Both the position numbers and the translations under genes were made by a program. Positions 20,109 through 50,449 of a DNA stretch of 64,000 nt are shown in pieces. The DNA is from Oligoflexus sp. (GTDB lineage Bacteria; Bdellovibrionota_B; Oligoflexia; Oligoflexales; Oligoflexaceae), in NCBI GenBank assembly GCA_041736305.1, contig JBGSTX010000074.1, positions 1 through 64,000 on the forward strand. Direction: 5' to 3'. The stretch's first letter is position 1, and each line of letters opens with the position of its first letter. Under the pieces are notes generated by a model. It saw only the letters and a list, made by a program, of their open reading frames with translations. It searched no databases and was not told the origin of the DNA.

Positions 20109-20666
20109 ATGAATAGCAGTCAGGACAGTCTTCTCGTCTGGATTGATATGGAAATGTCGGGACTAAACCCGAGTACCGATGAAGTTCTAGAAATAGCGGT
20201 TCTCTTGACCAATAAGGACTTGGATGTCGTCGCTGTAGGTCCTGAGCTCGTGATCAAGCAATCCCCAATCCTATTTGATAAAATGGATACATGGAATCGC
20301 GAACACCATACTAAATCCGGCCTTTGGGACTTGGTATTATCATCGGCACTCAGCCTGCCAGATGCCGAAAAGATCGTTCTGGATTTTCTTAAACAGCATA
20401 TAGGACCTCGTCAGTCACCCCTCTGTGGCAACTCCATTAATCAAGACCGGATGTTTCTTATGCGACATATGGCAGCTGTTCATGAATATCTTCACTACCG
20501 CATGATTGATGTCAGCTGCTTGAAGGAGCTCGTAAAGCGTTGGTATCCGGGTGGCCCAAGTGCTCCCACCAAGGCCAACCATCATCGAGCTTTAGATGAT
20601 ATAAGAGAGAGCATTGCTGAGCTTCGCTTCTATCGCGAAAACTTCTTTTTGCCTGCACGCCAATAA
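20109..20666 (+). CDS. orn: Oligoribonuclease
   Basis: LVWIDMEMSGL, PLCGNSI..DR, HYRMIDVS, HRALDDIRESIAEL. Confidence 0.97.
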   Translation: MNSSQDSLLVWIDMEMSGLNPSTDEVLEIAVLLTNKDLDVVAVGPELVIKQSPILFDKMDTWNREHHTKSGLWDLVLSSALSLPDAEKIVLDFLKQHIGPRQSPLCGNSINQDRMFLMRHMAAVHEYLHYRMIDVSCLKELVKRWYPGGPSAPTKANHHRALDDIRESIAELRFYRENFFLPARQ

Positions 20667-20673
20667 GTCATCT

Positions 20674-20702
20674 TTCGTGCTGCTTTTCTTTGATGTTAGT
20701 AT
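20674..20702 (+). promoter_or_regulatory. sigma70-type promoter candidate for the intergenic RNA
   Basis: TTCGTG-N17-TAGTAT with extended TG; predicted +1 near 20709-20710 coincides with the first stem. Confidence 0.5.
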
Positions 20703-20708
20703 CTTGTT

Positions 20709-20892
20709 TAGGACCCTCTGGCCGATGCGGATCAACCGTGGTTTATAAGGTCCTATAGGCTAAATGCCTAGGAAAGGAGGTGGTGCTGTGGTGTCTATCG
20801 ACTGCACTAGTAGCACGGAGGTGAACGTCTCTTAAACAGAGGCGTAACCTCCACTACTAAACCGGCTCTACCTCTAATATTGGAGAGCCGGT
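20709..20892 (+). ncRNA. Structured intergenic RNA, Pxr-like candidate, containing a short ORF
   Basis: Consecutive stems: TAGGACC/GGTCCTA; TAGGC/GCCTA; TGGTGC/GCACTA; TAGTAG-GGAGGT-ACGTCTCT/AGAGGCGT-ACCTCC-CTACTA; ACCGGCTCT/AGAGCCGGT. Confidence 0.65.
20788..20835 (+). CDS. Putative 15-aa peptide MVSIDCTSSTEVNVS
   Basis: AAAGGAGGTG SD, 7 nt from AGGAGG to the GTG; TAA lies in the loop of the long hairpin. Confidence 0.35.
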   Translation: MVSIDCTSSTEVNVS

Positions 20893-20930
20893 CCCCTGAT
20901 TTTACCGTCTTCGAGACCAACTTCAGATCT

Positions 20931-21779
20931 TTAACTCATCATCTTTTTTCGGAAGAAATTAGGAATTGCGAACACGGCAGTCATCAGATCCTCATTGAGG
21001 TACTGAAGATCAGTTTTAGCAATTGCCGAAAAACGCTTCCTATCGAACTTACTGATGTCTATGGCTTGCTTTGACGCCATCGTCCACGACCACATCCCTT
21101 TTGGATAGGTAGGAATACTGCCGATATAGGGATGTACATGGCGGAATCCCCCGGCGGTGACGTTGCGATAGATTCGTTGTAAAATGGGAGCATCATGCCA
21201 GGGTGATTCAGACTGACAAACCATAAGACCGTTCGGTTTTAATGCCTTTGCTACGCTCCGGTAGAATTCACCACTGAATAAACCTTCGCCTGGCCCAATC
21301 GGATCCGTTGAATCCACTACGACAATATCCAAGCTCTCAGGCTTGCAATCTTTCATATAGGCGACTCCGTCTCCTATATTGAGCGTGACCCTTGGATCAC
21401 GAATGCCCTGAGCAATTTTTGGGAAGAATTTTTCGCAGGATTCTACGACCAGCCCATCAATTTCACAGAGGACAATTTCCTTTACCTCTGGATGTTTCAG
21501 CAGCTCGCGGACAGTCCCCCCATCACCACCACCAATGACGACAATACGTTCAGGGTTGGGATGGTTGAGAGCTGGTACATGCGCGATAAGTTCATGATAA
21601 ACAAACTCATCTTTATCCGTGCACATCACTAGACCATCGAGAAGAAGCATCCGCCCATAGGCCTCTGTTTCTATCACATCGACAGTCTGGTATTCCGAGC
21701 GTCCGCGAAAAAGTACATCTTTCGCTTTAAAGCCAGCTTTTAGATCGTCCCCATAATCTTCAAAATACCAAAGCTGCAT
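20931..21779 (-). CDS. speE: Spermidine synthase (polyamine aminopropyltransferase)
   Basis: LLLDG, DEFVYHE, VIGGGDGGTVRE, VDSTDPIGPGEGLF. Confidence 0.95.
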   Translation of the reverse strand: MQLWYFEDYGDDLKAGFKAKDVLFRGRSEYQTVDVIETEAYGRMLLLDGLVMCTDKDEFVYHELIAHVPALNHPNPERIVVIGGGDGGTVRELLKHPEVKEIVLCEIDGLVVESCEKFFPKIAQGIRDPRVTLNIGDGVAYMKDCKPESLDIVVVDSTDPIGPGEGLFSGEFYRSVAKALKPNGLMVCQSESPWHDAPILQRIYRNVTAGGFRHVHPYIGSIPTYPKGMWSWTMASKQAIDISKFDRKRFSAIAKTDLQYLNEDLMTAVFAIPNFFRKKMMS

Positions 21780-21806: not shown

Positions 21807-22496
21807 TTAGCGCCCTTTTCGTTCTTGGCTGCGAACATATTCGAGGAAGGAAGCTTTGTCTTCCATAATAGCCTGGTAACGCATCGGATTCATTCCGCGC
21901 TGCCCCTTACCTCGGTTGCCGCCACGGTTGTTGTTGTTGTTATTATTCGCACCGCTGTTAGACCCGGCAACGTTGTTGCCGTTGCCTCGGCTCCCCATAG
22001 ACGGTCCGCCGCCACTACCCTTCATTTGATTTTTGCGTTCGACGATTTCCCAAGCTCGTAGGACAACCCCTTCAGCCAAAAGTTCGGTGACGAATTCTTC
22101 CATGGAAATACCTTCGTCAGCTGCTTGCTCCTTAATTTTACGGATCAACGAGCGTGAGAGTTTGATATGGAGAACTTCGGATTCGACTTCAGTTTTGCTG
22201 TTATTGGCTTTTGGAAGAATGAGAGGACTCGCTTCGTGATTAACTTCAGGAGTGGAAATGAATTTCTGCTCTAAGGGCGGCAGAGCAGCTTCTACCAGGG
22301 ACGCCACAAGTTCGGCAGAGGCCTCCTCGACTGATTTACCATCTTTTTCCCTAGAGCTCAGCTTTGTGCGCCCCATCTTTTTACTCACTGCCGAAGGAAT
22401 AGGACGGTCCATGTCATCGATCCCGGGCTTTTTAATGCGGGGACCAGACTTTTTACTGAGAGTTTTGGCCTTCTTGCCCTTAACTTTTTCTGCCAT
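21807..22496 (-). CDS. Hypothetical protein with ribbon-helix-helix-like core and Asn/Gly-rich low-complexity segment
   Basis: LHIKLSRSLIRKIKEQAADEGISMEEFVTELL; AGGAG SD; poly-Asn run. Confidence 0.75.
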   Translation of the reverse strand: MAEKVKGKKAKTLSKKSGPRIKKPGIDDMDRPIPSAVSKKMGRTKLSSREKDGKSVEEASAELVASLVEAALPPLEQKFISTPEVNHEASPLILPKANNSKTEVESEVLHIKLSRSLIRKIKEQAADEGISMEEFVTELLAEGVVLRAWEIVERKNQMKGSGGGPSMGSRGNGNNVAGSNSGANNNNNNNRGGNRGKGQRGMNPMRYQAIMEDKASFLEYVRSQERKGR

Positions 22497-32464: not shown

Positions 32465-32541
32465 TGGTGCGGCTACCCTGACTCGAACAGGGGACCTCCA
32501 CGATGTCAACGTGGCGCTCTAACCAACTGAGCTATAGCCGC
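32465..32541 (-). tRNA. tRNA-Val(GAC)
   Basis: Cloverleaf GCGGCTA...TAGCCGC-ACCA, anticodon loop TTGACAT. Confidence 0.96.
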
Positions 32542-48421: not shown

Positions 48422-48494
48422 CAGGCGAGGAGGGACTCGAACCCACAACAGTCGGATTTGGAATCCGATGCTCTACCATTGGAGCTACTCGCCT
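48422..48494 (-). tRNA. tRNA-Trp(CCA), 3' CCA not encoded
   Basis: AGGCGAG...CTCGCCT-G, anticodon loop TTCCAAA, followed by CTC. Confidence 0.95.
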
Positions 48495-48565
48495 AGAAGA
48501 CTTTGCAATGAAGCTACACTATTCTCGCCCACAGGAAAAGTCGAAGCAAGACAGACGAGAACAAG

Positions 48566-48597
48566 AAAAAGCTGCCATTCGGAAATGGCAGCTTTTT
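48566..48597. terminator. Bidirectional terminator after tuf
   Basis: AAAAAGCTGCCATT-CGGA-AATGGCAGCTTTTT perfect inverted repeat. Confidence 0.85.
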
Positions 48598-48606
48598 GAT
48601 TTCTAT

Positions 48607-49800
48607 TTACTCGATAATCTCAGCAACAACACCAGCACCTACTGTACGGCCACCTTCACGGACAGCGAAGCGGAGCTCCTTGTCCATCGCGATCGGTTGA
48701 ATCAATTCAACTTCGATATCGATGTTGTCACCAGGCATAACCATCTCAACGTTGTCTGGCAACTTGATGGAGCCGGTTACGTCAGTCGTACGGAAGTAGA
48801 ACTGAGGACGGTAGCCTTTGAAGAATGGAGTGTGACGTCCGCCTTCTTCTTTGGTCAAAACGTAGATCGACGCTTTGAAACGCTTATGAGGCGTGATCGA
48901 ACCTGGCTTAGCCAAAACCTGACCGCGCATAACGTCTTCCCGCTTGGTGCCGCGAAGAAGAATCCCGACGTTATCACCAGCGCGACCTTCGTCGAGAAGC
49001 TTTCTGAACATTTCGACGCCAGTACAGATCGTCTTTTGCGTTTCTTTCAGACCGACGATTTCCATTTCTTCGCCGACCTTGACGATACCGCGCTCGATAC
49101 GACCAGTGACAACAGTACCGCGACCTGAGATCGAAAACACGTCTTCGATAGGCATCAGGAACGGACGATCGACTGGGCGCTCAGGAAGAGGGATATACTC
49201 GTCGCAAGCTTTGATGAGCTCGACAACTTTTTGAGCCCACTTGTCGGTTGCAACACTGGCTTCCAGAGCTCTAAGAGCGGAACCGCGGATGATTGGAGTT
49301 TCGTCGCCAGAGAACTTGTAAGCAGCGAGAAGCTCACGAACTTCCATCTCGACAAGGTCAAGAAGTTCTTCATCATCAACCATGTCGCACTTGTTCATGA
49401 AAACGACGATCTGAGGCACACCAACCTGACGAGCCAGGAGAATATGCTCCCGAGTCTGAGGCATAGGGCCATCAGCCGCGCTTACGACCAAAATCGCGCC
49501 ATCCATCTGTGCAGCACCGGTGATCATGTTCTTCACATAGTCAGCGTGACCTGGACAGTCGACGTGTGCATAGTGACGATTTGCGGAGCTGTACTCAACG
49601 TGTGAAGTCGAGATCGTGATTCCACGAGCTTTTTCTTCAGGGGCGTTGTCGATCTCGTCGAAAGCCTTCGCTACGCCGCCGTATGCTAGCGCCATGACTT
49701 TGGTGATAGCCGCGGTTAGAGTCGTTTTACCATGGTCAACGTGGCCTATGGTGCCGATGTTCACGTGGGGTTTATTGCGTTCGAACTTTTCTTTTGCCAT
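48607..49800 (-). CDS. tuf: Elongation factor Tu
   Basis: [21 protein letters not shown]. Confidence 0.99.
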
Positions 49801-49910
49801 TTTTTCCTCCCGCTAACGGCTGCAAGCGAAGTAAATCTTCTTATAATATCTTCTGATCTTAAATGATTCATAGCAGAGACTAGTCGACATCTCGTGCTTT
49901 GAGGCATGAA

Positions 49911-49986
49911 TGGAGCCCTGAACGGGAATCGAACCCGTGACCTCGTCCTTACCAAGGACGTGCTCTACCAACTGAGCCATCAGGGC
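49911..49986 (-). tRNA. tRNA-Thr(GGT)
   Basis: GCCCTGA...TCAGGGC-TCCA, loop TTGGTAA. Confidence 0.96.
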
Positions 49987-50132
49987 ATACTTGCGATCTA
50001 GACCCCGACCTCTTTACCACATTGTTGACCCTGTGAGAGGGTTTTTAGCTCCTCACAACATTCTCGTCAACCTATGTCTTCATCGCTAGCCTCCTCGCAA
50101 GAGACCCGCGCTATTAATAACGGGTTCAAGGA

Positions 50133-50209
50133 TGGAGCGGGAAACGGGATTCGAACCCGCGACCCTTAGCTTGGAAGGCTAATGCTCTAGCCAGCTGAGC
50201 TACTCCCGC
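50133..50209 (-). tRNA. tRNA-Gly(TCC)
   Basis: GCGGGAG...TTCCCGC-TCCA, loop CTTCCAA. Confidence 0.96.
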
Positions 50210-50240
50210 TTACCTTTGCCCGGCGAACCGGTGAAGAAAC

Positions 50241-50325
50241 TGGTGGAGGGAGGTGGATTCGAACCACCGTAGGCTAAGCCAACAGATTTACAGTCTGCCC
50301 CCTTTAGCCACTCGGGCATCCCTCC
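50241..50325 (-). tRNA. tRNA-Tyr(GTA)
   Basis: GGAGGGA...TCCCTCC-ACCA, loop CTGTAAA, long variable arm. Confidence 0.96.
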
Positions 50326-50373
50326 AATGTCGCACATAAGCACAAGGAGCTTACATACATTTAAAACAGCAGA

Positions 50374-50449
50374 TGGAGCTGGTGATGGGACTTGAACCCG
50401 CAACCTGCTGATTACAAGTCAGCTGCTCTACCAATTGAGCTACACCAGC
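50374..50449 (-). tRNA. tRNA-Thr(TGT)
   Basis: GCTGGTG...CACCAGC-TCCA, loop CTTGTAA. Confidence 0.95.

Follow-up and report, generated by a model that had tools for sequence, protein, structure and literature searches.

A structured small RNA between orn and speE of Oligoflexus is probably a ribosome-docking mini-mRNA

The DNA analyzed here is a stretch of 64,000 nucleotides from Oligoflexus sp. (GenBank assembly GCA_041736305.1, contig JBGSTX010000074.1, positions 1 to 64,000, hereafter the window). Between the convergent genes orn and speE it contains a gap of 264 bp (20667-20930), which carries the features of a small structured RNA with a short open reading frame (ORF) that starts behind a very strong ribosome-binding site and includes a second box complementary to 16S rRNA. 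An initial annotation made from the letters alone had proposed a structured RNA at this place; its elements were all found, with coordinates within 1-2 bases, and the GGAGG boxes that it had pointed out proved to be the key feature of the RNA. As detailed below, this RNA is probably an mRNA-like molecule on which ribosomes dock. The features of the locus, numbered from the first letter of the window, are the following.

20109-20666, + strand: orn (Pfam RNase_T, 1.7e-24).
20674-20679, + strand: −35-like hexamer TTCGTG, with 2/6 matches to TTGACA, poorly conserved in relatives.
20694-20702, + strand: extended −10 box TGtTAGTAT, with TAGTAT at 20697-20702 after a 17-nt spacer and TG at 20694-20695.
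20710 to about 20904, + strand: predicted transcript of about 195 nt, its start placed from the −10 box and its end from the U-tract.
20710-20754, + strand: P1, a 5' hairpin with an outer stem AGGACC/GGTCCT (20710-20715 with 20749-20754) and two inner stems.
20756-20770, + strand: P2, hairpin TAGGC-TAAAT-GCCTA (helix 4, 100% of cells paired), adjoining the ribosome-binding box.
20771-20784, + strand: SD1, the first Shine-Dalgarno (SD) box, GGAAAGGAGGTGGT, complementary to the 16S rRNA 3' tail, its exposed part being GGAAAGGAGGTG at 20771-20782.
20783-20816, + strand: hairpin A, GTGCT/AGCAC plus TGGTG/CACTA (helix 5), with the start codon in the stem.
20788-20835, + strand: mini-ORF with a GTG start, 15 codons (fM-V-S-I-D-C-T-S-S-T-E-V-N-V-S) and TAA at 20833-20835.
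20817-20824, + strand: SD2, the second box, GGAGGTGA, an 8-nt complement of the 16S tail, in frame and within the codons T-E-V.
20826-20844, + strand: hairpin B, CGTCTCT/AGAGGCG (helix 7), with the stop codon in the loop TAAAC (20833-20837).
20847-20852, + strand: ACCTCC, a 16S-tail-like tract pairing with GGAGGT of SD2 at 20817-20822 (helix 6).
20861-20903, + strand: terminator, stem ACCGGCTCT/AGAGCCGGT (20861-20869 with 20884-20892) followed by CCCCTGATTTT, with TTTT at 20900-20903.
20931-21779, − strand: speE (Spermine_synth, 2.9e-62).

The view that this is a free-standing RNA running from promoter to terminator, and not a 5' leader, was borne out, with a promoter box and a terminator that are both conserved. 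In an alignment of 20 loci, the TGnTAnnnT box was kept in 19/19 relatives reaching that position, and the first stem begins 7-8 nt 3' of the −10 box. The promoter first proposed, TTCGTG-N17-TAGTAT, holds in its −10 part, to which the TG of an extended −10 box can be added, while its TTCGTG hexamer is weak and poorly conserved; a simple promoter scan did not list this promoter because the hexamer matches TTGACA at two positions only. At the other end, the terminator stem (helix 8) had both sides changed in 5/9 pairs among relatives, whose 3' end reads GGTCCCATTTTT or similar, with CCC and a U-run behind the conserved hairpin. The conservation of the GCCGG core of this stem is unusually high for a terminator.

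No Rfam family was found in the gap at gathering thresholds, the whole window giving six tRNAs only, and a search of the gap at E<=10 returned nothing else than noise and a sub-threshold match to RybB (RF00110; 21.1 bits, E 0.051, gathering score 40). This match, a 17-nt identity (CTGCTTTTCTTTGATGT, 20680-20696) to the 5' seed region of enterobacterial RybB, was read as chance; the matching stretch corresponds to the promoter spacer, upstream of the predicted start, and is kept only in the closest relatives.

As the initial annotation had noticed, the gap is almost fully folded (z −3.99 on the + strand versus dinucleotide shuffles). The transcript itself (20710-20905) reached −81.6 kcal/mol as compared with −58.8 ± 4.7 in shuffles (z −4.88), and none of 200 shuffled controls was as good. 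The minus strand of the gap gave a z of −4.54, which leaves the strand unsettled because such a value is expected of a complementary strand; the + strand is favoured by the conserved promoter and terminator and by the many G.U pairs. Covariation was counted on 18 relatives with a structure set by hand, which comprises 8 helices and 51 pairs. This structure on the 18-sequence alignment was used since RNAalifold, applied to a MAFFT alignment of 30 diverse sequences, found 20 pairs only, owing to the misalignment of variable hairpins. In the hand-set structure 83.5% of cells were paired versus 37.5-45.5% when partners were slid by 1-3 columns, and 19 pairs were changed on both sides versus 10.4 ± 1.9 in shuffles, a figure reached by 0/500. 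Homologues with compensatory changes in their stems, whose absence would have spoken against the initial annotation, were therefore found.

Covariation was clearest in four places: the inner stems of P1, P2, hairpin B and the terminator. Each inner stem of P1 (helices 1-3 making up P1) had 3/4 pairs changed on both sides; one pair of P2 changed from G-C to A-U in 7/18 relatives and another from A-U to U-A in 1/18; and 5/7 pairs of hairpin B were changed on both sides. The stop codon lies in a hairpin loop in 26/35 Oligoflexales-type sequences versus 28% of shuffled controls. Hairpin A, with 95.6% of cells paired, varied on one side only (7/10 pairs, G-C to G.U) and on both sides in none, and it overlaps an alternative pairing of AGTAG (20809-20813) with CTACT (20854-20858) which is present in computed folds. 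Likewise, helix 6, which joins SD2 to ACCTCC, had 86% of cells paired and one-sided changes only.

The two boxes were compared with the 16S rRNA tail (...GGATCACCTCCTTTCT) of a same-genus and a same-family genome, the source genome having no assembled 16S gene. SD1 is a perfect complement of this tail over 11 nt (20772-20782), or over 14 nt if the G.U pairs at 20771 and 20783 and the U-A pair at 20784 are counted. It is invariant in 18/18 relatives and mostly unpaired in both the minimum free energy and the centroid folds. SD2 is also invariant in relatives. Its GGAGGTG core (20817-20823), which includes codons 11-12 (GAG GTG) of the mini-ORF, ends 9 nt before the stop, which follows three codons later; the last sense codon lies 8 nt from GGAGG, a spacing that resembles that of initiation. 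The stop lies exactly 9 nt after the second in-frame GGAGGUG in 33/34 Oligoflexales relatives.

The start codon (GTG at 20788) is placed 7 nt after the GGAGG core of SD1, and a second in-frame GTG is found at 20791. Coding potential was counted on 34 unique Oligoflexales-type sequences. An open in-frame ATG, GTG or TTG was present 4-13 nt after the first GGAGG in 34/34 of them, while the other two frames had one in 1/34 and 0/34. The stop, always TAA or TAG, was located 15 nt after GAG in 33/34 (18 nt in the remaining one), for an ORF length of 14-17 codons. The distance between SD1 and SD2 takes all three values modulo 3 (21/8/5) and the frame is nonetheless kept, the alignment insertions of 6 nt (locus L019) and 3 nt (locus L020) being in frame. 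Regarding the peptide, the N-terminal residues vary freely; T-S-S-T-E-V is conserved also as nucleotides, third codon positions included, and the last three codons form part of a covarying stem (helix 7). The targets of selection therefore seem to be translation as such and the RNA, with most of the peptide left out. In its variable part the ORF is rich in Cys (47/251 residues), at least one Cys being present in 28/34 peptides and at least two in 16, often as CC or CxC, and Cys-rich frames are also seen in the versions of Acidimicrobiia (e.g. MNDGCCGT..) and Acidobacteriota (MEYCRCG..) described below.

A similar plan is known from the rre RNAs. In the accessible part of the report on rreB of Bradyrhizobium (Hahn et al., RNA Biol 14:1353, PMC5711450), this RNA of 165 nt carries a 17-nt perfect 16S complement which reaches the GTG of a 14-codon ORF. 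It co-sediments with the 30S subunit, to which it binds strongly, and its translation is weak. Putting a stop in place of the start codon makes it more stable, so that its decay depends on the start codon. The analogues given there, rreB of Bradyrhizobiaceae and rreR of Rhodobacterales, are confined to Alphaproteobacteria, and their function 'remains elusive' for rreB; the same part of PMC5711450 makes no mention of CC2171, Rfam or Actinobacteria. The Oligoflexus RNA and the rre RNAs have in common a free-standing unit of about 165-195 nt (the ends being predicted here) with a sigma-70/RpoD-type promoter and a terminator, a 16S-complement box including AGGAGG, an ORF of 14-18 codons that begins with GTG 7 nt after GGAGG, a hairpin enclosing this start codon, and a peptide which is unconserved between clades. 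Apart from belonging to another phylum, the Oligoflexus RNA differs in that its complement stops 3 nt short of GTG, whereas that of rre reaches the first base of the start codon, and in that its docking box is exposed, whereas only 5 nt are predicted to be single-stranded in rreB, according to the accessible text. It also has two extra hairpins 5' of the box, and its frame contains a second GGAGGUG, placed 9 nt before the stop, which the accessible text of PMC5711450 leaves unmentioned.

The second comparison is with Ms_IGR-5 (RF02471). As far as the accessible parts of the sources go, this RNA lies between MSMEG_5794 and MSMEG_5795 and is validated, uncharacterised and NAD-capped in Mycobacterium smegmatis (bioRxiv 10.1101/2021.12.14.472595), its function being uncharacterised in PMC10454040 as well; it has ribosome footprints in M. 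abscessus and M. smegmatis (PMC4974804), and a relative forms a separate small RNA (sRNA) unit in Streptomyces avermitilis (PMC8780764). It is also present in RNA-seq of S. lividans. Likenesses include the box AGGAAAGGAGGUGGU, the hairpin between the boxes, the free-standing unit and a mini-ORF of 12-18 codons in which GAGGUG, in frame, precedes the stop by exactly 9 nt; the RF02471 consensus itself reads GAGGUG, 9 nt, UAG. Together with the acidobacterial forms, Ms_IGR-5 is the closest relative in design, with a common GGUGGU after the core and a second box at −9 from the stop. In contrast with the Oligoflexus RNA, a promoter-like −10 (e.g. TAGGGT in Streptomyces) stands just 5' of the box and would leave no room for hairpins like P1 and P2 (the starts being predicted), and the actinobacterial 3' domain is longer and different. 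With a threshold of 45 bits, RF02471 matched loci of Streptomyces (84.5 bits), Gordonia (47.7) and further actinobacterial-type loci (47.1 and 51.3), and remained below threshold on Acidimicrobiales (36.0 and 32.4 bits); three other Oligoflexia loci gave nothing with this model at E<=1.

CC2171 (RF01867), an sRNA of Caulobacter, has been validated by Northern blot in Methylorubrum extorquens, with no condition or function known there. It resembles the Oligoflexus RNA by its 5' motif GAAAGGAGGUG, followed by GUG and a short frame, and by its own terminator. Its consensus opens with the full 17-nt complement, then GUG, and a metagenome scan with the CC2171 19-mer gave at least 120 loci, 113 of them unique. 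Among the matches listed, the frames had 12-31 codons in all but one, and were of at most 30 codons in 111/113 as compared with 79 and 66/113 in the other frames. Out of 12 such loci, six matched RF01867 (39-101 bits, 101.3 and 88.8 being above the threshold of 75) and RF02471 was matched by two others or the same, one above its threshold (53.5 bits) and one below it (30.8 bits), which indicates that the two families share their 5' end. CC2171 differs by the full 17-nt complement, by ORFs that are mostly longer (up to about 25-29 codons) and by the second box, which is not general there, GAGGT being found 15 nt before the stop in 18/113 of the matches listed. In the alphaproteobacterial CC2171 and rre RNAs, the plan of a 16S complement followed by a mini-ORF is therefore common and the second box is mostly lacking. 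In the literature searched, no functional study of Ms_IGR-5, CC2171 or rreB was found.

The distribution of the RNA was followed at increasing distances. A BLAST search with the gap gave a match in 28/41 related genomes (source genome included) from several families of the same order, and identical or near-identical loci were found in records of Oligoflexus, Oligoflexales and Pseudobacteriovorax. By exact pattern, the RNA was present in 44/131 genomes of the phylum, all in the same order; it was found in 0/36 genomes of the other orders searched, a strict pattern being liable to miss diverged copies. A scan across phyla, with one genome per species and both GGAGGTG boxes but no stop demanded, gave at least 119 loci. 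Besides Oligoflexia, the matches listed included dozens from Acidimicrobiales, Streptomyces and Gordonia, and some Acidobacteriota records. Among these, the stop was exactly 15 nt after GAG in 110/116 unique hits (18 nt in one), and an in-frame start was placed 6-12 nt after the first box, ATG in Streptomyces (MYAHRTSEVAAG). Five pattern matches (L035, L049, L075, L109, L133) were dropped as chance, being inside long ORFs, and the 2/101 genomes of Zixibacteria with the pattern correspond to the chance level. One acidobacterial class had the pattern in 28/151 genomes, and one acidobacterial locus gave weak matches to RF01867 (CC2171, 26.3 bits) and RF02471 (14.7 bits). The geometry of box 2 and stop is thus common to the Oligoflexales, actinobacterial (Ms_IGR-5) and acidobacterial branches, and it was not found described in the literature searched on Ms_IGR-5, CC2171 and rre, as far as the accessible texts extend.

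Two side observations were made on these distant versions. In loci of the Acidimicrobiia type (L024-L139) the in-frame start is often CTG, ATC or ATT at a fixed spacing of 8 nt. These are near-cognate starts of the kind discriminated against by initiation factor 3. At one acidobacterial locus (L172:1-212), the copy of the mini-mRNA has a cobalamin riboswitch (117 bits) and four tRNA genes as neighbours within about 1.5 kb.

Signs of expression were sought in metatranscriptomes. Eight RNA runs contained 4-9% of the sampled words, and contigs from four of them, belonging to four studies, were placed on 20726-20872, the other runs having no bearing on transcription; they were 79-200 nt long and two were at least 99% alike. 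The flanks at 20500-20725 and 20873-21100 were uncovered by these contigs, which has no bearing on the transcription of orn and speE. These contigs lend weak support to expression of the RNA. In two freshwater runs, the contigs at least 99% alike stopped exactly at positions 20726/20728 and 20866, adapter-like letters following directly, and these ends may correspond either to a discrete fragment of about 140 nt or to a library artefact.

Taken together, the conserved complement of the 16S tail, the frame-specific start and stop and the independent promoter and terminator suggest that the RNA is probably a small, independently transcribed and mRNA-like 'ribosome-docking mini-mRNA' of the kind of rre, Ms_IGR-5 and CC2171. 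It is a new Oligoflexales branch of an already known kind of RNA. The 'new sRNA class' put forward as one option in the initial annotation has therefore to be given up, the design being one already known from rre small mRNAs and from two Rfam families, Ms_IGR-5 and CC2171, while two of its listed alternatives, a ribosome (anti-SD) decoy and a dual-function RNA, come close to the evidence of a 16S-tail complement combined with a conserved mini-ORF. In the proposed mechanism, a 30S subunit would dock on the exposed first box, melt hairpin A which hides the start codon, and then initiate. The ribosome would read the short frame and, at the stop, its anti-SD could re-pair with the second box at an initiation-like spacing. 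By analogy with rreB, the fate of the RNA (its stability and any signal) would be set by ribosome traffic and not by a protein product.

Several points weigh against the docking reading or against parts of it. The Oligoflexus complement is perfect over 11 nt (14 nt with two G.U pairs), as compared with at least 16-17 nt in rre. RF02471 had no match in the gap or in the whole source genome at E<=10; RF01867 had none at the locus at E<=10 either, its sole match in the source genome lying elsewhere (13.8 bits, E 2.9). Since both models are silent and the rre hallmark of at least 16 nt is lacking, the RNA was not filed in any of the three named families. In the scan across phyla the search pattern itself demanded both boxes, so that the likeness, which is one of design, may come there from homology or from convergence; features outside the pattern nevertheless agree across phyla, namely the position of the stop, the in-frame start, the hairpin between the boxes and the free-standing promoter and terminator. 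The contigs from RNA libraries show neither strand, ends nor level, and such libraries can contain DNA. Overexpression of rreB had no effect on growth (accessible part of PMC5711450), which makes plain titration of ribosomes unlikely. As for the claim that the second GGAGGT is hidden against ACCTCC, the pairing does occur in the fold, but masking is weakly backed: SD2 was paired downstream in 33/35 sequences and also in 82% of shuffled controls, which makes this pairing weakly informative. In the actinobacterial and acidobacterial types, neither SD2 pairing (38/72 versus 57%) nor a stop in the loop (23/72 versus 19%) was clearly enriched. Finally, an anti-terminator pairing of SD1 with the terminator was rejected here, as 62/100 shuffles were as good at this locus.

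The same data could also be those of an ordinary small-protein gene, in which the 15-residue, Cys-containing peptide is the effector, either metal- or redox-active or the partner of a protein, and the RNA features tune its synthesis. Conservation of the frame, start and stop would fit such a gene, as would the Cys content of the variable residues, its recurrence in the actinobacterial and acidobacterial versions, and the conservation of the RreB and RreR peptides within clades, reported in the accessible part of PMC5711450. However, outside the stretch engaged in RNA pairing and SD2, residues are freely exchanged even among members of the genus. The conserved part of the peptide is conserved as nucleotides down to the third codon positions of T-S-S-T-E-V, or covaries as a stem in the last three codons, and between phyla only E-V is common, which is the SD2 box itself. 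In addition, synthetic RreB and RreR were unstructured, and growth was unchanged in a strain presumed to overproduce RreB (same part of PMC5711450). A peptide effector is thus an unlikely explanation.

The frame-specific conservation also bears on the idea of a non-coding regulator, whose pyrimidine tracts (ACCUCC and UACCUCU) would mask the ribosome-binding sites of target mRNAs, or which would act as a CsrA decoy, the ORF being incidental in both cases. The RNA does have two 16S-tail-like CU tracts, with the terminator arm CCCUCCUUUC in other Oligoflexales, its transcript contains six GGA triplets, and the source genome encodes CsrA (76 bits). Yet a start and stop conserved in one frame only (34/34 sequences versus 1/34 and 0/34) are unexpected for a non-coding RNA. 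In known CsrA decoys, GGA motifs are numerous and lie in loops; in the present fold no GGA is wholly in a hairpin loop, and one (20728-20730) straddles a stem-loop boundary. Moreover, CsrA was not found in 5/5 actinobacterial and acidobacterial genomes with the same design, so that the CsrA decoy listed in the initial annotation is unsupported as a common function. A non-coding regulator of either sort appears quite improbable. Regarding the tracts themselves, the 5' arm or loop of the terminator reads CCCUCCUUUC or CUCACCUCCUUUCU, about 30-40 nt after the stop, in loci L044, L048, L063, L077, L084, L090, L105 and L125; in these other families of Oligoflexales the tract nearly copies the 16S rRNA tail and could pair with SD1, and in the Oligoflexus RNA it has decayed to UACCUCU.

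The location between two genes raises a third alternative, that of a cis-acting part of the neighbours: a processed 3' untranslated region of orn, a two-way terminator, or an attenuator leading into antisense to speE. In 18/34 unique Oligoflexales loci the RNA comes directly after orn and on its strand, and speE is convergent within 400 nt in 6/34 and more distant in others. From its sequence, the closing hairpin could serve speE as well, as a terminator on the opposite strand, and SD1 pairs with the 5' arm of the terminator better than in shuffles in 14/35 relatives, as in an anti-terminator logic. On the other hand, the RNA has its own extended −10 box, kept in all relatives reaching it, 16/34 loci are without orn upstream, and the flanking genes differ in the three actinobacterial loci examined. 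The relative in S. avermitilis is an independent sRNA unit (accessible part of PMC8780764), and the SD1-terminator pairing at the present locus is no better than chance. A role confined to the neighbouring genes is accordingly very improbable.

A homologue of Pxr, the myxobacterial developmental sRNA with which the initial annotation had linked the RNA from a layout GAAAGGAGG...GGAGGTG and with no computed result in support, is hardly credible: cmscan of the gap at E<=10 did not match Pxr (Rfam 15 presumably having a model for it), and Pxr is described as non-coding, has three stem-loops (SL1-SL3), lies directly 3' of the NtrC-like pxrR and is restricted to Cystobacterineae (accessible part of PMC5684412), whereas the Oligoflexus RNA stands behind orn in an Oligoflexus genome, is about twice as long and has at least six helices and a conserved ORF, so that the likeness is limited to both being free-standing, structured small RNAs with several stem-loops.

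Elsewhere in the window, an ORF beside speE (21807-22496, − strand, 229 aa) gave a sub-threshold match to a FitA-like ribbon-helix-helix protein (20.6 bits versus a cut-off of 27). The six tRNA genes are on the minus strand, within 48422-50449 and 32468-32541, and four of them are clustered at 49914-50449.

Within the docking mini-mRNA reading, the second box and the stop in a loop may be given a more specific, and rather doubtful, role as a 'termination trap', in which a ribosome loaded from the first box would be recaught at the stop by its own anti-SD. If this were true, the RNA would be a two-site device holding ribosomes or reporting on them. It could then sense the capacity for release and recycling or, through its Cys-rich frame, the charging of Cys-tRNA, coupled to its own decay.

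Under the names rre, CC2171 and Ms_IGR-5, RNAs made of a 16S-tail complement and a tiny ORF have so far been three unconnected entities, none with a known function. The actinobacterial, acidobacterial and alphaproteobacterial forms have one plan, and the Oligoflexales branch was missed by every Rfam model. Oligoflexus tunisiensis Shr3 is a cultured carrier of the element, and the first box, the start codon, the second box and the stop offer clear mutational handles on the effect of ribosome docking.

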